This document shows, in pieces, positions 288 through 62,261 of a stretch of 64,000 bases of DNA. The notes beneath the pieces are model-generated. The model was not told the DNA's origin. It searched no databases and worked only from the letters and a program-made list of their open reading frames with translations. Origin of the DNA: a virus. Location: positions 3,868-67,867 of the IMG/VR virus record IMGVR_UViG_3300045988_142996. One strand, given 5' to 3'. Both the position numbers and the translations under genes were made by a program. Position 1 is the first letter of the stretch. Each line of letters opens with the position of its first letter.

Positions 288-375
288 AGAATAGCTTTTC
301 AAACAGAAAAAGCCCGGGTTGACCGAGCTTTTGAGTGAAAATGGCAAATTTATACAATGATTGAAGGAGGTTTAC

Positions 376-7191: not shown

Positions 7192-7195
7192 GGTA

Positions 7196-10100
7196 TCACC
7201 TTGCCCTTCTTGCGGCTCTTGCGCCGAGCCCTGCATCAATCCACCCGATGGTGGTTTTGCCGTCCACTACCACGCTCATGCCGTGGATACTGTCCGCCAC
7301 GCCGTCCATCCGTCCGCCCAGTGCGTTCACCGCGTTCAACAGGTCGGCATTGGACTGGGCTTTCACTCCATTTTGAAGTTCTGCCGCAGCATCCACCTGA
7401 GCCGCCAGACGTTTCGTTGTGCCGCCGTCCAGACTGACATTGTCAAAGGCCCGGTTGATGATATCGGTGCTCTCGTCCACGTCGGTCAGGTCCACTACCG
7501 GGCTGATGGTGGGCGTGTACTCGTATTCATCATCTGTCACCCGCTTGATGGCACCAACCGCAGCGATCGCAATATTCGTAGCATCGTCGGTCATGTCCTT
7601 GATGGCGTCGTCCACGGTGTCCTTGCCGTCGGTAATGCCGTCCGCAAAGTCCTTGTCAAGGTCAGAACCGGCGTCCTTTGCCGCGTCGGACTGCTTTTTA
7701 TCCTTTGCATGCTTGATGGCAATGGCCGCAATGCCGCCCAGCAGCGCCAAAATGATGCCTCCCGCCAGAATAAAGGGCCAGATTTCCGGCAGCAGCCCGA
7801 TCAGACTGCTGAATGCCCCGCCAATGGTTCCAACCACGCCGGTTGCCACTTCAGAGATTCCGCCTGCTCCAGCCAGTAATCCGGTGATCTCGCCGCCTGC
7901 GTTCTGCACGATGCCTACGATCTGCCCAAAGCCCTGTTCCAATGCAGGCAGTGCTTTGTCAAAGAGCTGCCCGACGCCTTCCAGCATCTTCTTGCCCTCG
8001 TTGGTGCCCATAAAGTCCAGCGCCGCCGTCACAGCGGACACTGCCGCACCGGCCCAGTCTCCCTGCAGGGCCGAGACGATAGCTGAGGTGAACTCAGTTC
8101 CGATCTCAATGCCCTCGTCGCTGAAGGCCGCGCCAAATGCATTGGACAGGCCGGTCTTCACGTTTTCCGGCAGGTTCTGCGATGCCTTGTTCCATGCCTT
8201 GGTCAGACCCTCGCTCAGGGGTTTCCAGTTCTTCTGCACGGCATAGGCAAGTTTCACCACCATGGATTTGCCTTCATCTTCCAGATTAAAGGCCTCGGCC
8301 AGGTTGGATGCAAAGCCCAGGAAGGCGCTCTGGGAGGAGAGCAGGTTGTCCTGTGCGGCTTCTTTCTCCTCCCGGGTTGCATTCTCTGAGTTGAGGATCT
8401 CCTGATACTTCGCCGTCTCCTTGAGCTGGAAGTTCATGTTCTTCAGGGCCGTCACCACGCCCAGAATGGACGTCGTCGTGCCCTGGAACTGCGCCTTCTT
8501 TGCCTGCTCGCTGTCTTTGCCGTATTCCTCCACGGCAGACTTGTAGGCATCCTCCCGCTGAGAGAGGTCGCCGTCGCTGTACACCGTGTTCAGGATGTCC
8601 ATGCGGCTCTGCATCCGGCTCTGGGCAGTCGAAATGGCATCGATCTGTGCGTCGATCAGGTTCAGTTCCTGCTGTGCCAGATCATTTTGAAGTTCCTGTG
8701 CCTCGGTGCGGGCGTCCAGCAGATCGTTCCAGGCTTCCATGGTGCGCATGTCTTCTTCGCCATACTGAGCCTTCAGGGCGTCATACTGCTCCTGCGCTTT
8801 GGCCAGCTTTTTCTCCTTGATGGCCAGTTCCGCCGTCATGTACTCGGTTTCCCGGTTGATCTTGTCGGTTTGGGTGGCTGTTTTGTCGTTCTGTGCCGTC
8901 CACAGGCCATATTCCTTTTCCAGCGTGTCGAGGTCGGTGTCGTAGCGCTTCGTCACGTCGTCAAAGAGGCCCACATACTGCTCTGCCTTCAGGTCGGCCA
9001 GACTGGTCTTTTCCTCCAGCAGGTCGAGGTAGGCCTCTTTGGTCTCGGTCTTATCCTTGCCCCAGCGCTTGGCCAGCTCGTCGTACTTCGCCTGTGCAAT
9101 GGCCACCCGGTCGGTCTGGTGCTGGATGTCCGCTGCGGCATTCTCGGTCTTCTTGGCCAGCAGCTCGTCCACCGAGGCACTGTACTGGTTTTCCTTCAGC
9201 CACAGGTCGTACTCTTCGTCTACCGTGTCCTTCAGGGTCTTGTTGGCCGCCAGCTGGGTCTTGTACTTTTCCGTGATCTGTTCGGCTACGGTCTTCTGCT
9301 TGGTGGAAGATTTGGTTTTCTTCTTGCCCGTACCGGTTCCGCCGGAGCCATCAGTGTTTCCAGAATCCGCATCAGGATTTTCCCGGTTTCCGTACAGCGA
9401 CGTCCAGTCGAAGCCATCTGCTTTCTTTTTTGCAGGAATTGCGTTCAAACCGGAATCGCGAAGGTCCATCTGTAACTGGCGTCGTTCCTGCGGAGTCAGA
9501 GACGGATCATTTAGTGCATTGCTTAGCTCCTCCTGGAGACCTTCTTTATAGGCAGCACCAGTTCTCCTGCCAACATCTCTTGCTTCATCCTCAACATCTG
9601 ATGCCTTATTTTCAAGTCCTTCGATTACGCCACCATCGTAATACTCACCATTTTCGATTCCGTCATCTGCATTAGAATGGATACCAACTTCATCTCGGAA
9701 AGCATTGTCCATACTCCGAGCGAGAATGGACATCGCCGTTTCTGCGGCAGGGGTTCCATTTTGAATTCCCTCAACAAGACCGCTGACAATGTAACCTGCA
9801 TTTTCGATGGCAAGTCTAGCGGGAGAAGCAATCCCCCAATAGTCATTGAATGCATCATTTTGGGAATCAGCCAGCTCCTCAACAGCATCGACTGCTTTAT
9901 CTCCTTCTTTTTCGATGCCTTTGGCGTAGCCTTCAGCGACATACTCGCCACTGCTTTGAGGATCAACACCATGTTCACTCTTGAATGCACTCTGAATCTT
10001 TTCGCCAATCCACTTGCCAAGCGCTCCGAATTTCGACCCGATATAATTGAATATTGAGCCAATAACAGAATCAATTGTTTCCAAAATCTTAGGAGTACAA

Positions 10101-13100
10101 TTGATTAGCACATCGCACAAAGCATAAATCAGCGTTTCCAATGTAGTCTCGATTTTGGGCAAGCATGCAATGAGAACATCGCAAAGAGCTGTAATAACGG
10201 CAATAAGGACATTTCCAATTGCAGGTATAGCTTTAACAATGGCATTGCATACTGCCACAATAATTTCTGCAATACCAGTTGCAATACCACCGATAGCACT
10301 GCCAAGACCAGCAATAACTCCCGCAATGAAAACGCCAACAGCCGCACCAAGTGATGCAAGCGCGCCAATGAGTGCACTTATCTTTACCGGCATGAGACTT
10401 ACAGCGGCCATCGTTCCAAGTAGCAATGCAAAACTTCCAGCCAGCAGGCCAAGCGCAACAGATACTGCAACCACGATAGGACCCGCAAGTGAGAGCGCGC
10501 CAATTGCGATTGCAAAGGTTCCAAGTGCTCCACCAAGCGCCAACAAGCCATGACCAATTTCAGTAAGCGACATCTCACCGAGTGCTTTTATCGGAGGAAC
10601 CAAAGCGTTTAACACCACCGCCATAACCAGGAAGGATGCAGCGCTGCCCAACGAACCTTTTACGAAAGTCAAAGCGAGACCCATTTCAATCAGGCCGCCT
10701 GCCAATGCAGCTAATGCCAAACCGATTTGATCAATCGTCATGCTGCCAAGATTAGTCATTGCATTAGACAGTATCAGAATTCCACCTGATAATATTGTCA
10801 GTGCGACTGCCGTTGAGAGCATGTGCTCGGCAAGAGACGATATCACACCAAACACAGCAATCTCTGCCAACAATCCCCCGATGGCGGCAAGGCCCTTTTT
10901 GAGATTATCGACTGGCATTTCGCTAAATTTGGAAACCGATTTTTCCAAGACTGCTAAAGCTGTGGCGAGAATCAGAATTCCAGCCGCCTTCCCAAGCGAC
11001 AATCCGTTAAACTTGCTTAAAGCAGAAAATGTGACAATTTCTGCAAGTAATCCACCAGCCGCAGTGAGTCCTTTCCCTATTTGATCCCACTTGAGATTGC
11101 CAAGTTGCTCAACCGCTCCTGCTAAAACACGTACCGATGCGGCCATAATCAGCATACTGGTTGCGTGCTTGGTGCCATCTTTTGCCCACCTTGAAATTGC
11201 AATTTGAACTGTGACAAGTTCAGCCATCACAGCGCCAAGCACTATTACTGAACCGAGAAGTTTATCCGAATCAACAGCTGCAATCTTTTTCAACGCAACC
11301 GAAAGAATAAGAACCCCTGCGGCCATAGCGACCATCGCTGTAGTTCCTTTTCCAACCTTCTTCGTTTTTTTCGTTATTTCATCAAATATCGCAAGCGAAG
11401 TCAGAAGTTCCGCAAAAAGTGCTGTCATCGCAGCCACAGATGCTGCCAATCGCTCCGGTTTCACCAGAGATAGTACAACAAGAGATCCTGCCAAAATGGC
11501 CACCGCGGTTGAGATGGTCTTCAGTGTCTCGGCATTCTTATTATTTTTCCATGCAGATACAGCATCTCCGAGCTTGTTAAGAAGCTCTGCCACACTGCCA
11601 ATGGTGTCCTTTATTGTTGAACCGATATCCTTAAATGCGTTGAAGAATCCCTTGATCCCCGCAATAAGACCAACAATCATCCCTGTATTTGCGAATCCCC
11701 AGATGGTATTTCCATCCAGATTTTTAAATGCACCCGCCGCGCCACTTCCCAACTCTTTAAAAATTTCTCCGAGCTGGTCGGTCAGCCATTTTAACTTAGG
11801 TATCACGAAATCAATAAATCTTTTTATCCAGTCGCCCACAGTCTTAATCGGATCGAACACAATACTCGTCTTGGCGCCAAGCTCAGCAATCCATTCAATA
11901 ACCGATTTAATAGCGCCAGATATTGTTTCAAGAACCGGGGTGATAGCGCTTGCAATATTCCCAAATGTTTCCGTGATATGAGACGATTTTTCAAGTTCTA
12001 CGAAATAGTCTCCGAGACCAGCAGCGACTTTCATAACACTCTTGGCAACCGGTTCAAATGCTGACAGCACCGTCCAAAGGGTATTTCCTGCTCCTTTGAT
12101 CACAGTCAGACCCATTTTCAGAACTGCAAATACGCCGGAAAATGCACGTTGCAAATACTCCGAGGTACTTTTACTGATGCTCATTTTCTTCGTCAGCTGG
12201 TCAAACGATTTTAATGTATCGTAGATGCCACTGCCCGTCGGTGCCAAAATTCCATTAAAAGCCTCTTTTATTGGAGAAAGAACCGATCCGATTCCCTTTA
12301 AAATATTTAGAATTCCCCGAAAGAAATATTCGCGGCCAGAAGTCTGTGCCATCTGATTTGCAAATTCTTCGATTGAAGATTCACCGTCGTCAATTTTCTT
12401 CACATAATTGGCGAAGGCTTCATGGTTCTTTTCGACTTCGTCCCTGGTGTATCCGAGTTTTTTCAGTTCTGCATCACTTTTATCAAGAAGGATTTCATAT
12501 CCATCAGCAGCACCTCGAATAGCCTGCTCCAAGTTATCCGCATCAATCTTTCCCGTCCGTAATGCGACACTAAGCGCTTCCTGAAAAGATCCAGCTTTTT
12601 CGATATCGTCATCCGTAATGATTCCAGCCTTATTAAAGCCTTCCTGCAATCCTGATTCCAGAATATCTCCAACATCACCGAGGCCGCTTCTCAGCAGTTT
12701 CGTCCAGCCGCTATCAAATCCCTCATGGAGAATGCTATTTCTAAGATCCTTACCTTCAGCAAACAAGTCATAGAGTTCGTCTGCAAGGTCGCTCCAAAAG
12801 CCTTTTGCCTCTTCATAGTCACCAAATATAATTTCAAAGGTCTGCAGCCAACCCGTGCTCACCGCATCTTTTGTTGCATCGATAGCCTCACCGAAGCTCT
12901 TTGCTTCCTGTGCGGCTTTAAACGCTTTTACGGTGACGTCATCGTACTTATCGGCTAATTCGTCGATAGCCTTCGATGCCGTAGTATACTTATCAGGCTC
13001 ACGATCCATCAGATCTTTGACTGCCTGCGTGAATTCAGCCATCTTGCCAAAGGCCTGCTCCATGACTTCCTTATCCGCCCACTTCTTTGCAAGAGTGGTC

Positions 13101-13855
13101 TGAAAGGTGCCGACCGTCACTTCGCCTTCTTTAATTTTGCCTAGCTCCACACCAGTTGCAATGATCTGTCGCTTCAATTCTGCAGTAGCAACACCCGCCA
13201 GCTCAACCGATTTCCAGTCCATCAGGTTCAGATACCCCTGACTGTAGCTCTGGTTCAGATTGTAAATCACTCGGCTGAACTCACTGGCCCCTTTGCCGGC
13301 ATAGGCTGTGGCATTGGCAATGCCCATGATCATCGGAATCAGTTTGTCAACATCGCCGCCTGCTGCGGTAAGTTGTCCTAAAGATGCCGTCATGTCAGTG
13401 AAGCCATAGCTTGTCTCATCCGAGTACCACATCAGCTTATCGAGGTAAGAGTTCACTTTAGTAATCGACTTACCCGTTGCATTCATGATGGTCTGAACAC
13501 TTGCTGTCTTTTGCGCGTATTTATCCCAACCTGCGGATACCTGGTCAATCGACAGGTTTTTTACCAGCCGTTCACCCGCATCTACCACTTGGTTTGTAAT
13601 TTTGGTTAAGGCGGCTATTCCAGCAATTTCCAAAGCTGAGAATTTAGAATTTAGGGTCTCAAGTGCCGATGTCATCTGCCCAAAATCAACTTTTTCGGAG
13701 GCATTTTCAATCTTGTTGAAACCTTTTTCGGCTCCGTCGAAACGTAAGCTCTTATTCAGATTTGCCAAACTGGCAAGGGTTTTTTGCACGTTTTGCTCAA
13801 ATCGCGCATTGTTGAATTGCATTTCCACAACGCGCTGGTCCACTTCCTGGCTCAC
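7196..13855 (-). CDS. Tail tape measure protein (TP901-type core), about 2,219 aa
   Basis: N-terminal region ...SLGQLTAAGGDVDKLIPMIMGIANATAYAGKGASEFSRVIYNLNQ... matches the TMP core. A huge Ala/Gly/Leu-rich hydrophobic centre and coiled-coil Lys/Glu repeats follow. GTG at 13855 overlaps the upstream TGA (GTGA), with GGAGG 7 nt upstream. Confidence 0.9.
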   Translation of the reverse strand: MSQEVDQRVVEMQFNNARFEQNVQKTLASLANLNKSLRFDGAEKGFNKIENASEKVDFGQMTSALETLNSKFSALEIAGIAALTKITNQVVDAGERLVKNLSIDQVSAGWDKYAQKTASVQTIMNATGKSITKVNSYLDKLMWYSDETSYGFTDMTASLGQLTAAGGDVDKLIPMIMGIANATAYAGKGASEFSRVIYNLNQSYSQGYLNLMDWKSVELAGVATAELKRQIIATGVELGKIKEGEVTVGTFQTTLAKKWADKEVMEQAFGKMAEFTQAVKDLMDREPDKYTTASKAIDELADKYDDVTVKAFKAAQEAKSFGEAIDATKDAVSTGWLQTFEIIFGDYEEAKGFWSDLADELYDLFAEGKDLRNSILHEGFDSGWTKLLRSGLGDVGDILESGLQEGFNKAGIITDDDIEKAGSFQEALSVALRTGKIDADNLEQAIRGAADGYEILLDKSDAELKKLGYTRDEVEKNHEAFANYVKKIDDGESSIEEFANQMAQTSGREYFFRGILNILKGIGSVLSPIKEAFNGILAPTGSGIYDTLKSFDQLTKKMSISKSTSEYLQRAFSGVFAVLKMGLTVIKGAGNTLWTVLSAFEPVAKSVMKVAAGLGDYFVELEKSSHITETFGNIASAITPVLETISGAIKSVIEWIAELGAKTSIVFDPIKTVGDWIKRFIDFVIPKLKWLTDQLGEIFKELGSGAAGAFKNLDGNTIWGFANTGMIVGLIAGIKGFFNAFKDIGSTIKDTIGSVAELLNKLGDAVSAWKNNKNAETLKTISTAVAILAGSLVVLSLVKPERLAASVAAMTALFAELLTSLAIFDEITKKTKKVGKGTTAMVAMAAGVLILSVALKKIAAVDSDKLLGSVIVLGAVMAELVTVQIAISRWAKDGTKHATSMLIMAASVRVLAGAVEQLGNLKWDQIGKGLTAAGGLLAEIVTFSALSKFNGLSLGKAAGILILATALAVLEKSVSKFSEMPVDNLKKGLAAIGGLLAEIAVFGVISSLAEHMLSTAVALTILSGGILILSNAMTNLGSMTIDQIGLALAALAGGLIEMGLALTFVKGSLGSAASFLVMAVVLNALVPPIKALGEMSLTEIGHGLLALGGALGTFAIAIGALSLAGPIVVAVSVALGLLAGSFALLLGTMAAVSLMPVKISALIGALASLGAAVGVFIAGVIAGLGSAIGGIATGIAEIIVAVCNAIVKAIPAIGNVLIAVITALCDVLIACLPKIETTLETLIYALCDVLINCTPKILETIDSVIGSIFNYIGSKFGALGKWIGEKIQSAFKSEHGVDPQSSGEYVAEGYAKGIEKEGDKAVDAVEELADSQNDAFNDYWGIASPARLAIENAGYIVSGLVEGIQNGTPAAETAMSILARSMDNAFRDEVGIHSNADDGIENGEYYDGGVIEGLENKASDVEDEARDVGRRTGAAYKEGLQEELSNALNDPSLTPQERRQLQMDLRDSGLNAIPAKKKADGFDWTSLYGNRENPDADSGNTDGSGGTGTGKKKTKSSTKQKTVAEQITEKYKTQLAANKTLKDTVDEEYDLWLKENQYSASVDELLAKKTENAAADIQHQTDRVAIAQAKYDELAKRWGKDKTETKEAYLDLLEEKTSLADLKAEQYVGLFDDVTKRYDTDLDTLEKEYGLWTAQNDKTATQTDKINRETEYMTAELAIKEKKLAKAQEQYDALKAQYGEEDMRTMEAWNDLLDARTEAQELQNDLAQQELNLIDAQIDAISTAQSRMQSRMDILNTVYSDGDLSQREDAYKSAVEEYGKDSEQAKKAQFQGTTTSILGVVTALKNMNFQLKETAKYQEILNSENATREEKEAAQDNLLSSQSAFLGFASNLAEAFNLEDEGKSMVVKLAYAVQKNWKPLSEGLTKAWNKASQNLPENVKTGLSNAFGAAFSDEGIEIGTEFTSAIVSALQGDWAGAAVSAVTAALDFMGTNEGKKMLEGVGQLFDKALPALEQGFGQIVGIVQNAGGEITGLLAGAGGISEVATGVVGTIGGAFSSLIGLLPEIWPFILAGGIILALLGGIAAIAIKHAKDKKQSDAAKDAGSDLDKDFADGITDGKDTVDDAIKDMTDDATNIAIAAVGAIKRVTDDEYEYTPTISPVVDLTDVDESTDIINRAFDNVSLDGGTTKRLAAQVDAAAELQNGVKAQSNADLLNAVNALGGRMDGVADSIHGMSVVVDGKTTIGWIDAGLGARAARRAR

Positions 13856-14235
13856 TTCGTTACCTCCTTCCACAGTTCATCCCGGATGGCATCAAACACC
13901 GGTTTCATCGCTGGGTTGATGTAATCCACGCCCTGCACATACCCGCCGTTTCGGGTGCCGTGTCCGTATTGCAAAATCACCGCAATGGGCACGCCGTCCA
14001 CGATGTTTGCGTTTTTCCAGCAAAGGGTCGCCCCGGTTTTCTCCATTTTGATTTCGTAGCCCCAGCTGGCGGCGGTCTTTCCCGTTGCCTTCGGGGTGGC
14101 TTCTGCCAGCGCTTCCACGCCCTTTTGGCCGTACTTTTCCAAGATGGGCCGGATGTTTCTCGTCCGCAGATGGGTCAGAAAGGTCAGGCTTTTCTTAAAG
14201 TCACCGCTCTGCCGCATTTCGATCACTCTGCTCAT
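13852..14235 (-). CDS. HK97 gp10-like neck/tail-completion protein
   Basis: 127 aa. ...AEATPKATGKTAASWGYEI...ILQYGHGTRNGGYVQGVDYINPAMKP resembles the HK97-gp10 family. It lies immediately upstream of the TMP. Confidence 0.55.
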   Translation of the reverse strand: MSRVIEMRQSGDFKKSLTFLTHLRTRNIRPILEKYGQKGVEALAEATPKATGKTAASWGYEIKMEKTGATLCWKNANIVDGVPIAVILQYGHGTRNGGYVQGVDYINPAMKPVFDAIRDELWKEVTK

Positions 14236-18894: not shown

Positions 18895-20163
18895 TCATAT
18901 CCTGCTGGCCGCGGCCCGAGCCAGAAGCCGGTCCACCGTTTCCTTGCCGCCTGCCATGGCGGTATTCTGCGCCTCTTCCGGGCTCTGGTTCAGGTTCTTG
19001 TTGCTCAACTCATCCGCACGCGGGTCTTTCGAGGGCTTCAGCCCGATCACCTGCCGGAACTCGTTGGAGCTCATGATCTCGTTGCGGGTAAACTTGTCCG
19101 CCATCTCGGCCACCGTACCAATGGGTGCCAGCTTGAACGGGTCACGGAAGAACAGGATGCTCTGGCCTTGACTTCTTGCGGTCTTGGTCAGGAACTTCCG
19201 CTTCATCTCGTCCACGATCGCGCTGATGATAGGCTCCACGATGCGGTTGTAGTAGTTGGTCATCGCCGCCTCGTCCGCTGTCCCGTTCATGATCTCGATG
19301 GTAATACCCAATTGACTGTAAAACATGTTCGTCAGGTATTCGATCTGCTTCAGAAGGTTGTTTTCGAGGCTGCGATTCAACTGCGTCACCCGCTCGGTGC
19401 CGTCCGTCCACGCAATGCCGTATTTCGAGTCCCGGAGCTGCTCTTCGATCTCCCGCCGGCGCTTGTTTGCCTGCTCTCTGCGGGCTTCACTCTTCACCAC
19501 ATAGGGCAGCTGAATGATCAGGTCCAGCTTTCCGGCACCGGCCTGCTCGTCTACCACGTCCAGAAGGCTCAGCTTCCGGATCAGGCGCTGCATCGTGCTG
19601 TTCGGCTCGTTCATAATGGCGTAGAACGGGTTCTCGATCAGCGCCACGGTCTTTTTCGGCAGAACCAGTTCTTCCTTCTGGCCGGTCCGGTCGTTGTAAA
19701 GCCGCACCCGTACGTGTTCGGGGTACCATTCCAGCACCTTACCCACCCGCATGGAGTAGATCTTGTAGCCACTGCTCTTGCTGGGGTCGTAGTCCGCTTC
19801 CACCGGCACCACGGCCACCACACCCTCGTCCAGCATGCTCATCACAATGTCCTGAATGAGCCCCCGCCCGGTCTGGTCGATGTTGGCTTCTAAATTCAGG
19901 CAAGAATTAAGGCCCGAATCGATGACCGAATCAAACCGGCCATTGTCATCGAGCCTTACATGCTGTATCGTGATGGCGCTGCAGTCCATCGAAATGCGGT
20001 TGTATACGCTGGTCACAAAAGTGCGTTCGTTGCCACGCGTCAGCCGCACCCGGTCAGGCCGGTAGCTGTACCCGCCTGCATATCCTCCAAAGTTCGGGGG
20101 AGGGTCCCGGTTCAGAAAAGCGTTCCAGGCGTGCTTCAGCCGGGAACCAAGATTCATTTCCAT
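18895..20163 (-). CDS. Portal protein
   Basis: About 422 aa, between the terminase region and the protease-capsid gene. ATG at 20163 (MEMNLGSRLKHAWNAF...). Portal family not determined. Confidence 0.7.
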   Translation of the reverse strand: MEMNLGSRLKHAWNAFLNRDPPPNFGGYAGGYSYRPDRVRLTRGNERTFVTSVYNRISMDCSAITIQHVRLDDNGRFDSVIDSGLNSCLNLEANIDQTGRGLIQDIVMSMLDEGVVAVVPVEADYDPSKSSGYKIYSMRVGKVLEWYPEHVRVRLYNDRTGQKEELVLPKKTVALIENPFYAIMNEPNSTMQRLIRKLSLLDVVDEQAGAGKLDLIIQLPYVVKSEARREQANKRRREIEEQLRDSKYGIAWTDGTERVTQLNRSLENNLLKQIEYLTNMFYSQLGITIEIMNGTADEAAMTNYYNRIVEPIISAIVDEMKRKFLTKTARSQGQSILFFRDPFKLAPIGTVAEMADKFTRNEIMSSNEFRQVIGLKPSKDPRADELSNKNLNQSPEEAQNTAMAGGKETVDRLLARAAASRI

Positions 20164-20198
20164 TTTGAATTTTCCCTTCCTCAAAAGCGCAGGAGTGG

Positions 20199-20657
20199 TT
20201 AAACCAGCATGCTACGATCATAGCGTTCGCTGGTTACTTTCATAACTGCCGAGATTGCTGTAGCGGCCATTCCTTTTTGAATCACTTGAGAATCAACAAT
20301 GTTTTTTCCAATTTTTGTCACGGCTCCATAGTTATTGTAGAGCGTATTGATGGTTCCAAGTGCCGTTGCTGCTGTTCCTGCAATCCCGATTGCCTGCTTA
20401 ATCCTATCTGGTTTTGCAATCAAGGATTCATACTGTTTTTCTTTTTGCAAACGGTTGATTTTTGCATTAAGCTCCGAATCGCTCAATTCTCTGACGCTCT
20501 TTTTCTCGTGTGCGTGGGTATAGTCAGGGTGGTCATTCTGCTGATATCTCTTTTTGCCTTCTGCTGTTAAGCTGCCATCCTTATTCTGATAGCGTCGGGC
20601 ACCCCACTTCTGACCTTTGATGCCCCAATGATAAAGTTCATCATTATATATGGTCAT
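20199..20657 (-). CDS. Small protein with an N-terminal ELYHWGIKGQKWGARR motif and a C-terminal glycine-zipper hydrophobic segment
   Basis: AAAGGAGG lies 6 nt before the ATG at 20657. Motif at residues 6-22; LSDSELNAKINRLQKEKQYESL helix; IGIAGTAATALGTINTL hydrophobic stretch. Confidence 0.7.
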   Translation of the reverse strand: MTIYNDELYHWGIKGQKWGARRYQNKDGSLTAEGKKRYQQNDHPDYTHAHEKKSVRELSDSELNAKINRLQKEKQYESLIAKPDRIKQAIGIAGTAATALGTINTLYNNYGAVTKIGKNIVDSQVIQKGMAATAISAVMKVTSERYDRSMLV

Positions 20658-20726
20658 ATTCCACCTCCTTTGCCGATAAACAAAAAGCGCACCAGCAATG
20701 AAGCTGATGCGCTCTGTCAAAAGTAT

Positions 20727-20933: not shown

Positions 20934-21422
20934 TCACCTTTTCGTGTATTTTCGGATTGCGTCATGCCCTGTTTTCCAAACAGTTGTGATGCACCCGTTC
21001 TCTGGATTTACATTTACCGTTGCGTACTGTCCAATGAATCGCTGGCTTGGCTGGCCTTTTTCATTGTAGCGTACTTTTATTTTATCAGCATTTAATGGCT
21101 TTTGCAATGCATCCAGCATACCGTCAAGAGTAACCTGTCGTGTTTTATCCTGTGTGCGAGCCAAGGCATGAATCGAGAGTCCTTTTACAAGTACACCATT
21201 TGATGTATAGAACGGTTTTCGGAATTTCCGTGCCGCTCGAGCCTCAATTGAATACCGATCATGCTCAAGCTGCTCTTTCGTTCTCCGCACACCCCACTTC
21301 ATACCCTTAATGCCGTAGTGCCACAGCTCTTGAGTACCATCAGTCCATCTCCACATTTGGTGGCATCCTCTTTCTATCTGTTCTATTGCGTTTGTAACCA
21401 TCCACGTGTTATACTTATTCAA
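20934..21422 (-). CDS. Toxin-like protein: N-terminal ELWHYGIKGMKWGVRR motif plus a C-terminal DUF4258/RelE-like (BECR-fold) domain
   Basis: C-terminus LSIHALARTQDKTRQVTLDGMLDALQKP...GQPSQRFIGQYATVNVNPENGCITTVWKT follows the H-x3-R-x3-R ... G-x-(I/V)-T-(V/W) pattern of DUF4258-type RNase toxins. The start codon is uncertain (TTG at 21422 or ATG at 21401). Confidence 0.55.
   Translation of the reverse strand: MNKYNTWMVTNAIEQIERGCHQMWRWTDGTQELWHYGIKGMKWGVRRTKEQLEHDRYSIEARAARKFRKPFYTSNGVLVKGLSIHALARTQDKTRQVTLDGMLDALQKPLNADKIKVRYNEKGQPSQRFIGQYATVNVNPENGCITTVWKTGHDAIRKYTKR
21386..21415 (+). promoter_or_regulatory. Sigma-A-type promoter for the plus-strand two-gene cassette
   Basis: TTGCGT (21386..21391), 18-nt spacer, TATACT (21410..21415), about 45 nt upstream of the ATG at 21463, which has a GAGGAGG RBS. 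Confidence 0.45.
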
Positions 21423-21462
21423 ACCACTTTTTGCGATTATTTAACTCGAGGAGGTTCAGATC

Positions 21463-22518
21463 ATGTCCGATTCCGAAATGCTTTCCACTCAGTCTTCCAG
21501 CTGCGAGATCACATTATGTGATATTCCACTGGACTTCGGCGATGCAATGCGATTCCATAAAATTGAATTTCCTGAGCAAGCCGGACTTGCGGCCAACTTG
21601 CTTCTTCGGCTTGTTCCTGCTGAACTCGCAGTGGGGGCAGCATCGAGCACCTATGTTCTTCGGTTTCCAAAAGGTATTCAGGGTTCTCTTATGAACTTGC
21701 ATCAGGGTGGACAGTCTACCGTTATGAAGGATGCTACCGGACATTTTGTAGGAACTGCATCGTTATATCGCACTGATCCGGTATCACTGGCAACTTTCCA
21801 GGTGTTTAGCATTGCATCTTTTGCGACAGGACAGTATTTTCTTGCAGACATCAGCTCAAAACTCACCGAAGTCAATAAGAAGCTAGATGACCTTCTTGCA
21901 TTTCTGCAGACCTCAAAGCGCACAGAACTTCTCTCCGAGCTGACGTTTGTGAAATATGCATTGGCAAATTATTCAACGATTATGCTTAATGATGCTCAGT
22001 GCATTGCAACGATTGGAAATCTTCAGCGTGCAAAAACCAAAGCGATTGCTGATATAGAGTTTTATACCGAGCAGCTCGAGAGTGCAGTCGCTGGCAAGTC
22101 GAATGAGAGCCAAGCTCAAATTGTTTTGCAGAATAAGCAGGGGGTTGATCTCGCCTCTCAACTTTATGCTATCAGCGGAATTATGGAAACCTACTATTCA
22201 CAAAATTGGAACGAGTCCTATCTTGCAAATATCAAAGCGGATGCCAAACCTCTTTTCGCTCTTACGCAAAACCGCATGATTGGTGCTTTGAGAACATTCT
22301 CTGATAAGGTGACCAAAGAGCTTGAGGCCCGGAAGAAAAATCCTCTTACTAAAAACGAGGTTTCCAAAAAAGAGTGCGAAGTTCTGCGAGTATGTGACGC
22401 TCTAAATTCTCAAGCTGAATCTCCGCTTCTTATTTTGATGACGGATGCTCTGAATAAGCCTTCAAGGGAAACAGAGCTTTATCTTCGTCCAGACGGTAGT
22501 GTCTACCAAAAGATTTAA
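21463..22518 (+). CDS. Hypothetical 351-aa protein, gene A of the plus-strand moron (helical, one hydrophobic helix)
   Basis: Strong RBS. It runs opposite to the whole structural operon. N-terminal LVPAELAVGAASSTYVLRFPKGIQGSLMNL...; hydrophobic FQVFSIASFATGQYFL; long helical remainder. No family recognised. Confidence 0.75.
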   Translation: MSDSEMLSTQSSSCEITLCDIPLDFGDAMRFHKIEFPEQAGLAANLLLRLVPAELAVGAASSTYVLRFPKGIQGSLMNLHQGGQSTVMKDATGHFVGTASLYRTDPVSLATFQVFSIASFATGQYFLADISSKLTEVNKKLDDLLAFLQTSKRTELLSELTFVKYALANYSTIMLNDAQCIATIGNLQRAKTKAIADIEFYTEQLESAVAGKSNESQAQIVLQNKQGVDLASQLYAISGIMETYYSQNWNESYLANIKADAKPLFALTQNRMIGALRTFSDKVTKELEARKKNPLTKNEVSKKECEVLRVCDALNSQAESPLLILMTDALNKPSRETELYLRPDGSVYQKI

Positions 22519-22550
22519 TCATCGTGAGGAAAAATAGAAAGGAGCATTTC

Positions 22551-23084
22551 ATGACTGTCGTTTGTCCCAGCTGCGGAAAGAAACTTCAAGTTCTCGATGA
22601 CAAACCAACGAATGGAAAATGCGGAAGTTGCGGTGTCTCTTTCACCGTTGAGTACACGGCTGACGAAACCGCCATTGTTTCAGTCAAGACAGAAAAGACA
22701 TTTTGGGAAAAACATCCTAAAATAGCTAAGGGCTTCGCAGCTGTATTGGGAGTTGGCTTTTTAGCCGGTGTGACTTGGCTTGCCGTCAAACCTAAAATCG
22801 ACGAGTTCGCCAATGATTCTCCCATAGTAGAAGACAATCAGTCTGATACAGCCCCCACTGCCACTTGCGTTGAAGTTAATAATGACAAGGCGCAGGATGA
22901 TGCCACTTATGAGCAAAAAGAAATTCCTGTAAGCGGTGGCAAAGTGAAACTATCCGGAAATCGTCATGCATCTCAAAAGAAACGTGAAACAGCTGCTGAA
23001 AATGGTTATGCAGATTTAGCACCCGATGAAACCTGGCGTGTTCCGTCAACGAGGGTTATTGAAACCCCAGTCAAAGAATCTTGA
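22551..23084 (+). CDS. Zinc-ribbon plus single-TM membrane protein, gene B of the plus-strand moron
   Basis: CPSCGKK...CGSCG zinc ribbon; TM segment GFAAVLGVGFLAGVTWLAV; low-complexity C-terminal tail. AAAGGAG 7 nt before the ATG at 22551. Its stop abuts the TerL stop. Confidence 0.7.
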   Translation: MTVVCPSCGKKLQVLDDKPTNGKCGSCGVSFTVEYTADETAIVSVKTEKTFWEKHPKIAKGFAAVLGVGFLAGVTWLAVKPKIDEFANDSPIVEDNQSDTAPTATCVEVNNDKAQDDATYEQKEIPVSGGKVKLSGNRHASQKKRETAAENGYADLAPDETWRVPSTRVIETPVKES

Positions 23085-24830
23085 TCACTCAAACGCATCC
23101 CGGTTATTCTTATAAGCTACATACGCATCCATCATAGCGGCAACCGCATCGATCTTCTGATCATACCTCTGTTTCAGAAGCTTGCGGTTGCCGTTTGTGT
23201 CTTCCAGGGTAATGCAGTTGCCCATAGCAAATTGCATCAGTTGCTCGTCAAACAGCAGTTTTCGCTGTTCGCTCAGCTTCTTCAGCTCGCCCAGCGGCAC
23301 GCTCTCTGTCTTTGCGCCCTGGATCACCTTCTCGATGGCATACTCGCCGTTCTCTCTGGCCCATCGTTCCACAAAGTCCTTTGCGTTATAGGGGTCGTAG
23401 CCGAAAGACCGTACGTCGTACCCGCTGTTCTCGATAAAGTGGTCAAGGTCGTCGTACACTTCCATCATGTCCAGCACGGTGCCTTCCAGCACCACAAGTG
23501 TTCCCTCCCGCATGAACTCGTCATACTTCTGCCGCATTGCAATGGGCAGCTTCGAGAGGGTGTAGCTCGTAATGTAGTCCCTCGTCTTCACGCCGAAATA
23601 TCCGTGCTCCATCGGGAACAGGAAGGTAAACGCGCAAAAGTCGTCGCCCTGGCTGAGGTCTGCGCCCATGCTGCACGCCATCTGCCAGAAGTCCCGGTGC
23701 CGGTGCGGCAGGGTCTCCTCGTAGGGGAAGAAGTAGGTGTAACCCTCCATCGGGATGCCGAAGCGCTTTGCCAGGATGTCATTCCGGCTGGCAGGAGCCT
23801 TCTCGGCGCGTTCAACGTCCAGCTGGTAGGCTTCGTAGCTCACTGTGGCTCCCAGGTTCGGGTTCGCCTTCACCCACATGCTGGGGTCATTTACCTCGTC
23901 GATGCTGTCCAGCTTGTAGTACCAGATGGACACATGCGGGTTCACATAGTCGCCCTTCAGGATGCTCATCAATTCCATTTTGATGTCGTCACCGCAGCCG
24001 TTGCGCACCGTGCCCTCGCTGCTGGTGGCTACGATCAGGTAATCCTCCACCTTGCAGCTACCCTGCTCGATAGCGCCAATGGGGTCTTCCCGGATGGGGC
24101 ACGAGAGCCATTCATCCACTGTGGCCACCTTGTCTCTCCGTCCCTGCAGCTTGTCGATGCTCATGGGGCGGATTTCCAAAAGGCTGTTGGTCAGGAAGTT
24201 CTCGATGCCCTTCTTCGTGCTGGCCAGCTTCACCCGCGCCGACTGGGAGCCGGTAGTGTTCTGCATGCTGCCTTCGGTCATAAAACGGTACAGCGGACCG
24301 CGGCTCCGCGCCAGTGCCGTGCGGATGGGGCTCAGCACCTCTTCCGCCTGCTTCATGGTGGGAGCCGTCGTGATCTGTTGCGTCGTGTGTCCGTCCACTG
24401 CAAGGAAGTATTGCTGGATGCAGCTGTCGTAGATGCTCTTTGCCGCGCCTCGTGCCACGATCAGATACTGCTTGCGGACAAGGCGGTGCTTGATGCGCTT
24501 CTGGATGTACCTGCCGCCATGGCCGTCGGGGTTGGGCTTGTAGATGGTGCGTTCTTCAAAGTAGTACCATCCGAAGATTTCCTCCGCCCATAGCTTGAAG
24601 GTGTCCAGCAACTTCATGTCACTGCCGTCGGTCAGGGTCAGTTCCCGTTCACAGAACTTCACAAAGCCATCCATGGCCTTGTCGTCGTAGTAGATACCCG
24701 GATTTGCGATAAGATCATCGATCCGGTTCATCTCCATGGAGATTTCCCTGCAGACAGGAATTTCGCCTCGCAGCACGGCCTCCCGGAAACGGCCGTAATA
24801 TTTTGGCGTAGCCGTGTTCGAGAGTGCCAT
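23085..24830 (-). CDS. terL: Terminase large subunit (Terminase_1-like)
   Basis: 581 aa. ...RKQYLIVARGAAKS (Walker A-like)... and a C-terminal nuclease-like half. Typical size and position. Confidence 0.85.
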   Translation of the reverse strand: MALSNTATPKYYGRFREAVLRGEIPVCREISMEMNRIDDLIANPGIYYDDKAMDGFVKFCERELTLTDGSDMKLLDTFKLWAEEIFGWYYFEERTIYKPNPDGHGGRYIQKRIKHRLVRKQYLIVARGAAKSIYDSCIQQYFLAVDGHTTQQITTAPTMKQAEEVLSPIRTALARSRGPLYRFMTEGSMQNTTGSQSARVKLASTKKGIENFLTNSLLEIRPMSIDKLQGRRDKVATVDEWLSCPIREDPIGAIEQGSCKVEDYLIVATSSEGTVRNGCGDDIKMELMSILKGDYVNPHVSIWYYKLDSIDEVNDPSMWVKANPNLGATVSYEAYQLDVERAEKAPASRNDILAKRFGIPMEGYTYFFPYEETLPHRHRDFWQMACSMGADLSQGDDFCAFTFLFPMEHGYFGVKTRDYITSYTLSKLPIAMRQKYDEFMREGTLVVLEGTVLDMMEVYDDLDHFIENSGYDVRSFGYDPYNAKDFVERWARENGEYAIEKVIQGAKTESVPLGELKKLSEQRKLLFDEQLMQFAMGNCITLEDTNGNRKLLKQRYDQKIDAVAAMMDAYVAYKNNRDAFE

Positions 24831-31883: not shown

Positions 31884-34646
31884 TTATTTCTTCAGTGCAT
31901 CATAAATCGTGGATTTCGGAACATTACAGGCTTCAGCAACTTCGGCATAGCTGTAACCCATGTCAAGCATTGCTCGTGCTTTGCTCAATTTGGCATTAGA
32001 AAGCGTTGTCGATGCTTTCGGCATTGCGCGTTTGATGATTTCAGAAGAATCAGAACTGTTCAGAAACTTCGTCAACATCGAATCCGAAATTGCATGATTC
32101 TGAACAGCTTCCCATTCCTTGTCCGTAAAGACGATCTTGGAGTTCCGACCGCTTGCACCAACAGAATCTCGTGCACGCTGCATCTCAACAGCAGAGATCT
32201 TCTTGATCTCTTTCTTGTCGGCTTTGCGATCAAGGCCTTGTGCTTCGATTTTTGCATTGATGTTGGCGTTTGCAATAATCATGGCACGCCGTTCTTTTGG
32301 CTTGTTGGTCAGAACTGCCTGATACTTTGCTTTCAAGGACTCAACCTCTGCCGCATACTTCTTGGCCGCTGCCGGATCACGCCGGATGCCCTTCATATTG
32401 ACGGCTTCCTTGCGTGCCTGATTAGTCAGAGCCTTCAGGCCATTGGCAAAGTCTGCGTACAACTCCTCCTGCTTTGTGCCAGAGGACAAGGTATGGACAT
32501 CTTTGATCATAGAGATGCGACTTACCTCATCTTCAGCCACATGCACATTACCCTTCTCGTCCTTGTAGGTACGGCCACTCTCCTTGTAGATGAGTTCGCC
32601 GGTCTCCTTGTCGATACGTGTGCTGCCACGACGCTCAGGAACACGGACGGTCTGCTTGCGACGGGACAGCAGCGTGGATGCACCACCGTACTTCGTATTG
32701 CCGTCTTCATCCACCCGGATCTGGTACTTCTGCTTCAGCTCCTGGATGCCGTTTTCACGCTCAGACCTCTTGTAGTCCAGGCCATGCTTCTCAGCATCAA
32801 TGACAACCATAGAGTGGCGCACTGCTCGCTCCAGATCTTCTGGCGTTGCACCACGCAAGGTCATGTCCGTAATCAGGTTCGAGATAATTCCCATCTCTTT
32901 CTGCTTCTCATCCTTCTTCATGAGACGAACATTGTTGGGGTTGCCTTCCGGAACAGAGTAGGCAGTCTTGGGGTCGAAGTTCTTCAGACCAGGAAGCGGA
33001 TTCGTTGAGTTGATACGAACCTTATCGCTCATCGGGATAGCCATAACGGTATCGCCATCAAAGTCTGCACCAGACAGCCGCTCTGCGACCTTCGCGTTGA
33101 TGCCGATGGCGTCCTGAATCGCGCCCAAATTGCGCTTACCACTGAGGTTCTTGTTGTTGACAGTCACAACGGGAATCTCAAATGTGCCTGCATGCGGATA
33201 ACGAATCAGTGCAAGCTGTGTTCCGTTCTCGTATGTAGGGCAATAGGCTTCTTTCTCACTGATGTTATTCAGCGGAAGGATGACCTTCGTTGACTGACCG
33301 GGAAATGCAGACGCTTTCAGGGTCATGGACGTGCCTTCACACTGGTCAGCAAAGTCCATCAGCATTTTTTTCTTGACAGTCGGGTTCGTGTAATGCATGA
33401 TCTCATCGTACTCGGCCTTATAGTCAGCCATAGTGAGGTCAAGCTGGCGTTTGATGAGCGGAACGGGCTGCTTGGACAGGAACTGCGAAGAAACATTCTT
33501 CGACATCGTGTCCCAGTCGCCTTCTTCTTTCAGCTTATTGATGGGAGAAAGATGCTCTTTGCCGTCGGCACCAATATAAGTGCTCTGGCCGTTCGCTTTG
33601 ATGGCTGCACCGAACGGGTTATCCGGATCATCCTTGATGGGCTTGAAGACCTTCATCTTGGGTGTACCAGAAGGCTTATTGGTATTAAAGACAATATCAA
33701 CACCCTTCGGCAGGTCATCAGAATATACGGCCATGCCCTTCAGGTAGTGGCTGTCATCCACCATGATACGAACCTGCGCATAATGGGAATTGCCCAAATC
33801 CAAATCAGGAACGCCGCGGCGAATCTCCATAACACCGTCTTTTGCAAGGCCGCCTTCGTCGCCATAGCGCACCGCCACACGATCAGAGCTCATGCTCACA
33901 GGACGCTGTAGTTTTTTGAAGCTGTCTCCACCATCGTCGGAATGATAGTCGCCAAGGGACTGAATCTCACTCTGATGCTTGTAGGCATAGCTCTGATCGA
34001 ACTCAGGCTTGCCCAGAACGGTGATATTTGTCTGCTGACGAGGATTGGTCGGCTGCTTGATGCCGACACCATAGCGCTTATAGCCGTATTCCGCTTCCAG
34101 AATATAAACAGCCTCATCCAGCTTGCCTTCCGAGACGCCAAGCGTAAGGTTGGAACCTTCGGAAATATCAATCATGCCTTTCTTGTCAACTTCCTTCTTC
34201 AGGACGTCAGCAATCTTTTCAGCCTGATCTTTCTTGGTTCCAACGCCATTCTGGTACATGGAGCGGACCGTCGATTCGGACAGGTTCAACTTCTGGCCGA
34301 TTTCAGTCCAGCCTTTGCCATCTTCTTTCAGTGCACGAATCTGATCCCACTGCAGCGCTTTACGGTCATGGCCGGCTTTGGCTCTTGCCACACGAAACTC
34401 GCTGGCACCCAGCTTGTACTCATCGGGCAGAGTCGCATTGATGGCCTCAAGGATCTCATTTTCACTCATGCCCTGAGTCTTCAGCTTATCGATTCGAGAA
34501 ATAAAATCGCCCGAATGCTGGTAAGGCGTCTCGCCACTACCCCAGGGATAACGGCCAGAATGACGCTTGGTGCCGTAATGCTCCAGCGTATCGCCGCCGT
34601 ATTCAATACCAAAATAGCTCGAAATATCTTTTTCAACTGGATTCAT
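31884..34646 (-). CDS. YonO-like single-subunit two-barrel RNA polymerase candidate with HTH modules
   Basis: LIRYPHAGTFEIPVV...ERLSGADFDGDTVMAIPM is an RxP strand followed about 45 aa later by the DxDGD metal loop (compare beta-prime NADFDGDQMAVH). HTH-like GKGWTEIGQKLNLSESTVRSMY and C-terminal GYSYAEVAEACNVPKSTIYDALKK. Confidence 0.6.
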   Translation of the reverse strand: MNPVEKDISSYFGIEYGGDTLEHYGTKRHSGRYPWGSGETPYQHSGDFISRIDKLKTQGMSENEILEAINATLPDEYKLGASEFRVARAKAGHDRKALQWDQIRALKEDGKGWTEIGQKLNLSESTVRSMYQNGVGTKKDQAEKIADVLKKEVDKKGMIDISEGSNLTLGVSEGKLDEAVYILEAEYGYKRYGVGIKQPTNPRQQTNITVLGKPEFDQSYAYKHQSEIQSLGDYHSDDGGDSFKKLQRPVSMSSDRVAVRYGDEGGLAKDGVMEIRRGVPDLDLGNSHYAQVRIMVDDSHYLKGMAVYSDDLPKGVDIVFNTNKPSGTPKMKVFKPIKDDPDNPFGAAIKANGQSTYIGADGKEHLSPINKLKEEGDWDTMSKNVSSQFLSKQPVPLIKRQLDLTMADYKAEYDEIMHYTNPTVKKKMLMDFADQCEGTSMTLKASAFPGQSTKVILPLNNISEKEAYCPTYENGTQLALIRYPHAGTFEIPVVTVNNKNLSGKRNLGAIQDAIGINAKVAERLSGADFDGDTVMAIPMSDKVRINSTNPLPGLKNFDPKTAYSVPEGNPNNVRLMKKDEKQKEMGIISNLITDMTLRGATPEDLERAVRHSMVVIDAEKHGLDYKRSERENGIQELKQKYQIRVDEDGNTKYGGASTLLSRRKQTVRVPERRGSTRIDKETGELIYKESGRTYKDEKGNVHVAEDEVSRISMIKDVHTLSSGTKQEELYADFANGLKALTNQARKEAVNMKGIRRDPAAAKKYAAEVESLKAKYQAVLTNKPKERRAMIIANANINAKIEAQGLDRKADKKEIKKISAVEMQRARDSVGASGRNSKIVFTDKEWEAVQNHAISDSMLTKFLNSSDSSEIIKRAMPKASTTLSNAKLSKARAMLDMGYSYAEVAEACNVPKSTIYDALKK

Positions 34647-62016: not shown

Positions 62017-62261
62017 TCTTCGCCCCTCCATTCGTAGCCTGTCTGCTCGAAAAGAAGCTTCGGCGAAATATAATAATTGATTCTCCCGTATTTTGAGCTC
62101 ATTTCCTTGAGATCGGTCACGCGCCTGCCGTTTCTCGTGGCCTCCCCAATCGGCAGCCATCCGGCAATGATACCAGCTCTCACCCATGCCGGATCACGTC
62201 CGTAGACCTTTGCTGCCACCCTCACTGGAACAGCACCCAATTTTAACCTAGCTTTGTCCAT
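62013..62261 (-). CDS. HTH DNA-binding protein (excisionase/Xis-like or early regulator), first gene of the minus-strand array
   Basis: 82 aa. ...VPVRVAAKVYGRDPAWVRAGIIAGWLPIGEA... is an HTH_17/Xis-like pattern. Divergent from the integrase. Confidence 0.45.
   Translation of the reverse strand: MDKARLKLGAVPVRVAAKVYGRDPAWVRAGIIAGWLPIGEATRNGRRVTDLKEMSSKYGRINYYISPKLLFEQTGYEWRGEE

Follow-up and report, generated by a model that had tools for sequence, protein, structure and literature searches.

An opposite-strand gene of the FP_oengus gp68 family in a TerL–portal insertion hot spot: a candidate stand-alone defence gene of Oengus-like Faecalibacterium phages

The stretch of DNA considered here (the window) consists of 64,000 nucleotides (nt) of the virus record IMGVR_UViG_3300045988_142996 (positions 3,868 to 67,867 of that record), and the subject is a gene, A, which with a second gene, B, lies on the plus strand between the genes for TerL and the portal protein of a phage with nearly all its genes on the minus strand. 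The ends of the window are identical (1–1878 = 62123–64000, 0 mismatches over 1,878 nt). The window thus covers a genome of 62,122 bp, circular or terminally redundant, and runs on past its start, so that the integrase gene appears twice. By sequence relatedness, the phage is a relative of Faecalibacterium phage FP_oengus, of the Oengus-like siphophage group. A tblastn search of A against deposited phages led to FP_oengus gp68 (YP_009797594.1, ‘hypothetical protein’), which is 51% identical over its full length and has the same setting, leftward DUF7211 gp69, rightward gp68 and leftward TerL gp67 (a 581-aa TerL). Unlike the window, FP_oengus has no gene B, and gp68 ends ~60 nt from the TerL stop. 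Oengus is a temperate phage that occurs as a prophage and encodes a tyrosine integrase; up to 40% of human gut virome samples were found to contain it (PMC5883640).

The portal–TerL interval is a 2.9-kb stretch of lower GC, holding two DUF7211-headed genes on the minus strand in addition to A and B on the plus strand (Table 1). A and B have a GC content at third codon positions (GC3) of 0.41 and 0.37, and the DUF7211 genes one of 0.43–0.44, versus 0.77 for TerL and 0.78 for the portal gene. As an initial annotation, made from the letters of the DNA alone, had stated, A and B are convergent with TerL and meet it base to base, the B stop (23082–23084) directly abutting the TerL stop (23085–23087). 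The spacing of 5–32 nt that it gave between A and B reflects two possible starts for B, both of which exist, a GTG at 22524 and the ATG of Table 1; the ATG, with a gap of 32 nt, is preferred since B homologues all begin MTV. It had further described the pair as the only plus-strand genes apart from the integrase and an insertion sequence transposase. Pfam confirms both of these, and there are no other convincing ones; the remaining long plus-strand open reading frames (ORFs) overlap longer minus-strand genes, not each of them having been checked individually.

The predicted promoter of A (Table 1) has a TG at 21407–21408 that makes it an extended −10 (TGtTATACT, 21407–21415). It was missed by a generic promoter scan, its −35 matching the consensus at 3 of 6 positions, and the number of sites returned by that scan for the region was no higher than in shuffled sequence. 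Better evidence comes from alignment of the region upstream of A in nine diverged relatives, the A proteins of which are 48–87% identical. The sole invariant intergenic positions are TTGC and, correctly spaced from it, TAT..T, together with GAGGAGG and ATG, and the flanks diverge. These invariant −35, −10 and ribosome binding site (RBS) positions are a phylogenetic footprint of what is predicted to be an independent promoter of A, and are stronger evidence for it than the consensus match. The claim of a separate sigma-A-like promoter (TTGCGT-18-TATACT) with strong RBSs is upheld to the extent that the sites are present and are conserved across the nine loci. Expression of A in the lysogen from its own sigma-A-type promoter is probable. 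No terminator-like site was found in the gap between A and B and, the gap also being short, the two are likely co-transcribed.

How constant this arrangement is was surveyed with 80 fetched viral contigs whose TerL is 75–95% identical to that of the window; TerL and portal were both found in 67 of them. [The ORF caller used for the survey picks antisense shadow ORFs in GC-rich structural genes, which makes the strands of unassigned cargo unreliable; the reading of cargo was restricted to recognisable protein-like sequences and to gene calls supplied with the fetched contigs.] The distance from TerL to portal ranges from −8 to 4,156 nt. The slot is empty in four of the 67 contigs and holds one small gene only (< ~800 nt) in ~20–25 more, a DUF7211 gene in at least 13 of these single-gene slots. 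A is present in 14 and absent from 53 (79%), and several relatives lacking it have TerL directly followed by portal. The other opposite-strand cargo includes a 274–277-aa zinc-ribbon/coiled-coil/transmembrane (TM) family, a 117–142-aa multi-TM protein, a 241/316-aa repeat protein and an EcsC-like protein. Ten such proteins other than A and B gave nothing above cut-off against Pfam. The cargo families are combined in many ways among the relatives. In one contig with a TerL 94% identical (L119), A is flanked by 276-aa and 122-aa proteins and B is not there. The 102-aa gene of L012 matches the C-terminal domain of the 277-aa family. The TerL–portal junction of the Oengus-like Faecalibacterium phages is a hypervariable insertion hot spot for independent accessory modules. 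A prophage moron in a variable hot spot is as such of a known kind; a hot spot inside the packaging module is unusual. The view that A and B are moron-like accessory cargo is well founded, given the opposite strand, the conserved promoter, the foreign GC3 and the variable presence among relatives.

The family to which A belongs is large. There are 86 close homologue clusters, and a profile search of 1.84 billion representative proteins (clusters at 50% identity) found 1,695 members at E<=1e-3, 271 of them at E<=1e-30, nearly all ~350 aa long and aligned end to end. Matches in genome collections come from Faecalibacterium, Lawsonibacter, Ruminococcus, Ruthenibacterium and other Clostridia. Neither A nor 46 diverse relatives had a significant match in Pfam, PADLOC (PADLOC-DB v2.0.0), PHROGs or NCBIfam, the relatives giving only scattered single PADLOC matches at E>=9e-4. 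That neither protein of the pair could be assigned to a known defence family still holds with PADLOC run on both, A having no match and the best for B being HEC-08 at E 0.036; B likewise had nothing significant in PHROGs or NCBIfam. Sequence-profile searches of the PDB with two A alignments yielded matches at chance level only. An AlphaFold model from a 150-sequence alignment has a mean predicted local distance difference test score (pLDDT) of 81 and a predicted template modelling score (pTM) of 0.81. Foldseek comparison of two models (pTM 0.69 and 0.81) to the PDB gave nothing at E<0.1, the best being E 0.12, and the top matches, generic helical bundles such as syntaxin, designed repeats and chemoreceptors, are not read as homology. 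In BFVD one uncharacterised Siphoviridae protein was matched, presumably a member of the A family. Neither the family nor its fold is catalogued in any library searched here.

In the model, a strand-rich N-terminal region of low confidence, which carries the conserved motif Y64..F68-P69-x-G71..G82-G83, is followed by a long helix with the family signature SFATGQYFL, a confidently predicted helical bundle and a short C-terminal beta hairpin (Table 1). The first half of the bundle is conserved and its last third (261–335) is the most variable part; by blocks, conservation peaks at 121–205 and 231–250 and is at its minimum at 261–335. The conserved positions are Q124, D142, K152, E155, E159, N169, Q179, Q188, Y201, Q233, E242 and N248 together with hydrophobics, and among the conserved columns there is no His/Cys/Asp constellation typical of nucleases, proteases or NTPases. 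The hydrophobic helix originally ascribed to A is not of transmembrane grade. The highest 19-residue Kyte-Doolittle mean in A is 1.5 and falls at residues 42–60, not 112–130, and across the family this value has a median of 1.39, with only 16% of members above 1.6. By these values the protein is probably soluble. A transmembrane or membrane-disrupting effector was considered and rejected, there being no segment of TM-grade hydrophobicity. A pore former of the ClyA/MakA/Vip3 type was likewise tried and set aside, Vip3A_N (E 0.019) being below cut-off and MakA having a Foldseek E of 0.75 and a TM-score of ~0.19.

It is the location of homologues outside phages that bears most on function. The metagenome loci among them are the 80 top-scoring matches of a profile whose seed was a member embedded in a type I restriction-modification (R-M) locus, and the context groups were dereplicated at 90% identity. 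In a Clostridia metagenome-assembled genome (L025) the homologue, at 6932–8014, is inside a bacteriophage exclusion (BREX) operon, BrxB-BrxC-[A homologue]-PglX-...-Schlafen/AlbA_2, with all neighbours Pfam-confirmed; Ruthenibacterium lactatiformans (L028) has the same start of the arrangement, judged by ORF layout only, without a Pfam scan. In a type I R-M locus (L037) the order is HsdR-[A]-HsdM-HsdS, the homologue (8001–9092) having a start that overlaps the HsdR stop and a stop that overlaps the HsdM start. Three more groups (L092, L097 and L062) have the homologue next to type I R-M genes, and PADLOC labels the R-M neighbours independently as REase_I (E 7e-225), MTase_I and Specificity_I. 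Elsewhere the gene is found with McrB/McrC (L040), with a NERD protein (L057), with a HEPN protein on a Mob_Pre element (L048), and with Imm70, a kinase-NB-ARC STAND protein and AAA_21 (L009). A distant homologue on a Mesobacillus plasmid adjoins an AAA_21 ATPase, with brxL-pglZ-pglX 3.6 kb away. In all, 11 of the 18 non-phage context groups have defence neighbours (type I R-M in four, BREX in three, one of them without Pfam verification, and McrBC, NERD, HEPN and STAND), three adjoin plain housekeeping genes and the remainder are of unclear class, proportions that are no unbiased estimate in a sample so seeded. If 10% of random loci are taken to have a defence neighbour, the binomial tail for 11 of 18 is 1.6e-7.

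These associations do not go back to a single event. The R-M-embedded copies are 49–53% identical to each other, the same distance as to phage-borne or BREX-borne copies, and of one pair that is 89% identical, one member is in a type I R-M locus and the other beside NERD; hence the association with defence loci arose repeatedly and the gene is mobile. Judged from these sequences and their settings, the family moves among temperate phages, small mobilisable elements and the interiors of bacterial immunity operons.

On balance A is taken to be a single-gene, stand-alone anti-phage defence or superinfection-immunity moron, a reading put at a little better than even. The defence role that was proposed initially is, for A, favoured by the contexts of its homologues (type I R-M, BREX, McrBC, NERD, HEPN and STAND); as a system of A plus B it fares poorly. 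Several points count against a defence role for A or limit it. It is guilt by association, drawn in part from the 80-locus sample with its type I R-M-embedded seed. The A of the window is only ~35% identical to the homologues in defence operons, and the neighbours of some homologues are housekeeping genes (YmdB, Fpg, TyrS/RecN). One distant clade of phages has the gene on the strand of its early and late genes, which would also fit an early function of benefit to the phage. The searches run gave A no effector motif, TM helix or PDB fold match, and a switch model, as set out below, is without direct support. As A and B are probably co-transcribed, and the pair is present in two near-identical contigs, the two may cooperate in this lineage.

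The initial annotation saw in A a cytosolic sensor and in B its membrane-anchored partner or effector, together forming an obligate two-gene abortive-infection or superinfection-exclusion system. The 32-nt gap lacking a recognised terminator-like site, and the co-transcription that these make probable, are in its favour, as is recurrence of the arrangement in two other metagenome contigs. Both of these are near-identical to the window (B 98%), and so represent one lineage, not independent co-occurrence. The pair is otherwise not conserved as neighbours, a finding that the initial annotation had itself listed as refuting its proposal. A stands alone in FP_oengus and in two abundant lineages that have it in the same slot, P0010 (71% identity; 85 collection blocks) and P0057 (51% identity; 168 collection blocks), where it ends ~60 nt from the TerL stop and B is not there. 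None of the 14 A-containing slots in the viral contigs has a B homologue, and R-M- and BREX-embedded homologues are without a B-like neighbour. Conversely, B homologues 80% and 65% identical abut TerL at the same position behind unrelated genes of 168 aa (with an N-terminal hydrophobic segment) or 102 aa, and B-like proteins 26–33% identical are behind the 274–277-aa family in the same slot, which gives B three unrelated partners. With A lacking B in FP_oengus and most relatives and B occurring with other upstream genes, the two are not a fixed pair. What is left is a loose tendency of A to have a small membrane or zinc protein after it: some relatives encode another membrane protein, of 117–142 aa, behind A, and the gene behind one distant homologue is for a zinc-ribbon protein of 76 aa. 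An obligate system of A and B is given a small probability. Somewhat less improbable, though still distinctly unlikely, is that A modulates methylation-based immunity, being a restriction-alleviation or anti-restriction factor that serves phage escape or the self-control of restriction by an operon. Of the 11 contexts with defence neighbours, eight involve systems based on DNA modification (type I R-M in four, BREX in three, McrBC in one), the distant phage clade has its gene in line with early genes and ahead of the late operon, and related phages carry other counter-defence-like genes (the Acb2/Tad1-hairpin matches noted below). An inhibitor would, however, undercut its own operon if it were encoded between hsdR and hsdM or between brxC and pglX, and homologues also sit beside NERD, HEPN and STAND genes, which are methylation-independent. 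In the Oengus-like phages, A has the pattern of a lysogen-benefiting moron: it is on the strand opposite to the lytic genes, has a promoter of constitutive type and is missing from 79% of relatives. The protein is slightly acidic without the look of a DNA mimic, and no match to an anti-defence family was seen, no anti-defence library having been searched.

Two further alternatives concern the immediate neighbours of A. In one, which is very improbable, A would, as an immunity protein, protect the lysogen or the producing cell from the adjacent DUF7211-headed proteins with their toxin-like C-terminal domains. A does divergently adjoin DUF7211 genes in most Oengus-like phages, the neighbour in one relative (L001) has an Ntox50 domain (E 1e-19), and distant homologues adjoin Imm70 (L009) or are near a SUKH-1 immunity-type gene (L036). 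Cognate immunity normally co-varies with its toxin, whereas A is 51–87% identical while the DUF7211 C-termini are unrelated and have only a 25-aa head in common. DUF7211 genes are common in the slot with or without A, and the R-M- and BREX-embedded homologues have no toxin neighbour. Further, A is divergent from, and not downstream of, the toxin gene, and 350 aa is large for an immunity protein. In the other, A would be an assembly, packaging or scaffolding helper of the lytic cycle that happens to be on the other strand. Its position between terminase and portal is in keeping with this, as is the retention of A with TerL in a degraded prophage (see below). Yet the gene is absent from 53 of 67 phages with conserved TerL and portal, in several of which TerL is directly followed by portal, and homologues are carried by mobilisable elements and within R-M and BREX operons of bacteria. 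A matched neither a PHROG nor a virion protein, a virion or assembly match being what the initial annotation had named as a check on its own proposal. The probability of such a helper is regarded as minimal, and A as a core morphogenesis gene was rejected on its absence from 79% of relatives.

If A is a stand-alone defence protein, the following course is the one favoured. It would be made in the lysogen from its own promoter, and the lysogen would be shielded against other phages. The fast-evolving C-terminal helices, with the small N/C-terminal beta cap, would be the sensing surface, and the highly conserved helices 106–205 the output module. Since no nuclease, NTPase or protease motif is conserved in the family, the output would be a conformational or oligomeric switch rather than catalysis. 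The placement inside methylation-based systems suggests a back-up role, and A could be a layer that acts once those systems are evaded or inhibited. A bolder proposal is that A founds a new immunity family, with a helical-bundle plus beta-cap fold, that is a non-enzymatic guard of, or back-up for, type I R-M and BREX, that abounds in the Clostridia of the gut and in the temperate phages of these, and through which Oengus-type prophages shield one of the human gut's most abundant commensals from competing phages. Taken jointly, this is speculative and rather unlikely.

Defence genes embedded in type I R-M or BREX operons have precedents, PrrC and RloC among them, and in published work such embedded genes have typically turned out to be independent or back-up defence modules. 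TgvAB, in a type I R-M operon, is an independent defence module (10.1101/2024.04.04.588119), and BREX-embedded back-up effectors, including Schlafen and HEPN proteins, are defence modules too (PMC12839542). The homologues of A that overlap the codons of hsdR and hsdM on either side, or that separate brxC from pglX, are placed like such genes (PrrC, RloC, TgvAB, BrxU/GmrSD, PARIS, Schlafen/HEPN), and the A family occurs as a free-standing mobile gene as well. A resembles none of them in sequence or fold, and no motif of an ATPase, nuclease, HEPN protein or anticodon nuclease was found in it. Prophage defence and superinfection-immunity morons are known from the hot spots of P2 and P4, from the prophage-mediated defence of mycobacteriophages and from RexAB of lambda. 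Like these, A is cargo on the opposite strand, with a promoter of its own and a foreign composition, in a slot that varies among syntenic phages; unlike them, it has that slot within the packaging/head module and not near att, immunity or cos.

Among the temperate phages of Faecalibacterium prausnitzii, a keystone commensal of the human gut, those of the Oengus-like group rank with the most prevalent, and the host group, anaerobic gut Clostridia, is poorly explored. A family of ~1,700 clusters that has no name, domain model or structural relative, and that recurs in type I R-M and BREX operons, is a candidate for a new defence mechanism. Even if A is not defensive, its embedding in immunity operons still needs explanation. 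The TerL–portal hot spot, full of unannotated zinc-ribbon and membrane proteins, is a place to mine for prophage exclusion functions.

Table 1. Coordinates in the window of A, its predicted control sites and model segments, and of neighbouring and other genes
Feature	Position	Strand	Basis
Promoter of A: −35 TTGCGT (21386–21391), 18-nt spacer, −10 TATACT (21410–21415)	21386–21415	+	sequence
RBS of A, GAGGAGG, 8 nt before ATG	21448–21454	+	invariant in nine aligned loci
Gene A, 351 aa, ATG; member of FP_oengus gp68-like family, candidate stand-alone defence protein	21463–22518	+	ORF call
A residues 15–101, strand-rich N-terminal region, low model confidence	21505–21765	+	AlphaFold, pLDDT
A residues 106–142, 37-residue helix with most conserved motif SFATGQYFL, family signature	21778–21888	+	AlphaFold, alignment
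A residues 150–334, helical bundle, pLDDT 88–98	21910–22464	+	AlphaFold
A residues 337–350, C-terminal beta hairpin, G345 and Y348 conserved	22471–22512	+	AlphaFold, alignment
RBS of B, AAAGGAG, 6 nt before ATG	22538–22544	+	sequence
Gene B, 177 aa, ATG	22551–23084	+	ORF call
TerL, convergent neighbour, one slot boundary	23085–24830	-	Pfam TerL_nuclease E 1.6e-36, TerL_ATPase E 3.6e-9
DUF7211-headed gene, divergent to A; variable C-terminus set	20934–21422	-	Pfam DUF7211 E 1.9e-10
DUF7211-headed gene	20199–20720	-	ORF call
Portal gene, other slot boundary	18895–20184	-	synteny with loci whose products match Phage_portal; slot analysis
Tyrosine integrase	361–1605	+	Pfam
IS110-family transposase, inserted in phage genome	58390–59565	+	Pfam DEDD_Tnp_IS110 E 1e-46

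B has only three close homologue clusters. From its N-terminus it has a putative CxxC...CxxC zinc ribbon (5–28), a TM helix (61–79), a variable linker (86–120) and a conserved C-terminal motif (124–177). Of the zinc ribbon, TM segment and disordered tail given for it earlier, the TM segment is genuine (Kyte-Doolittle mean 1.99), and the ribbon is partly borne out, with its four cysteines invariant in the homologues while its Pfam zinc-ribbon matches are all below cut-offs (E 0.005–0.1). The tail (124–177), far from being merely disordered, is the most conserved part. The flank of the ribbon is K-rich, of the type found on the cytoplasmic side, and the C-terminal motif is charged. B is best described, from its predicted layout and its changing partners, as a separate zinc-ribbon single-pass membrane moron and not an obligate partner of A. 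At a guess, it may act at the envelope as an exclusion factor. Sie2009 and Ltp are membrane superinfection-exclusion proteins of Firmicute phages. B resembles them in being a small prophage-encoded single-pass membrane protein from the non-lytic strand; it differs in having no homology to them, in its putative N-terminal zinc ribbon and charged C-terminal motif, and in being without a lipoprotein signal.

The DUF7211-headed proteins next to A have in common a ~25-aa N-terminal motif (HYGIKGMKWGVRR), and in related phages their C-termini are unrelated. The L001 counterpart (7419–7916) has only that motif in common, its C-terminus being the Ntox50 toxin domain mentioned above, which was identified with Pfam. 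The gene called at 20934–21422 probably has its true start at M23, near 21356. The set has a polymorphic-toxin-like architecture inside a siphophage packaging module, and its members are possibly virion-delivered effectors. Literature searches on the accessions and on DUF7211 found nothing. The start of a 920-aa protein encoded at 31884–34646 on the minus strand resembles the same N-terminal motif.

Some observations concern the surroundings of homologues elsewhere. A small gene with a Cro/C1-type helix-turn-helix (HTH_26) is directly upstream of the A homologue on Mob_Pre elements (L046, 6590–6856; L048, 7751–7969) and recurs near R-M and BREX copies (L025, 1820–2053); this gene could encode a regulator specific to the cassette. 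A distant homologue in L031 (1671–4701) adjoins a reverse transcriptase (RVT_1, Pfam E 3e-10) and genes for 139 aa and 405 aa that, by their N-terminal sequences, look like an Avd-like protein and the target of a diversity-generating retroelement, the reverse transcriptase alone being Pfam-checked; this neighbourhood points to such a retroelement. For three divergent representatives the contigs are short (1.7–7.7 kb). In that of P0091 the homologue is directly after a 248-aa gene, and that of P0207 has a weak WYL neighbour only.

Among the relatives of the phage itself, Pfam matches to the Acb2/Tad1 hairpin are present upstream of TerL in L001 (11811–12401), L004 (11514–12110) and L008 (14164–14364); the genes are like those for the sponges that counter the cyclic oligonucleotide-based antiphage signalling system (CBASS) and Thoeris. 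The degraded prophage referred to above, in contigs with P0057 (L005/L007), adjoins pfk and dnaE. It lacks the genes for portal, capsid and tape measure, while TerL, the DUF7211 gene and an intact homologue of A are retained, along with a truncated integrase. In the window, a 2,225-aa tape-measure-like ORF (7196–13873) has a GC content of 0.45–0.47 at 10001–13000 versus 0.51–0.58 in the adjoining parts of the ORF, and this dip suggests a mosaic or inserted segment.

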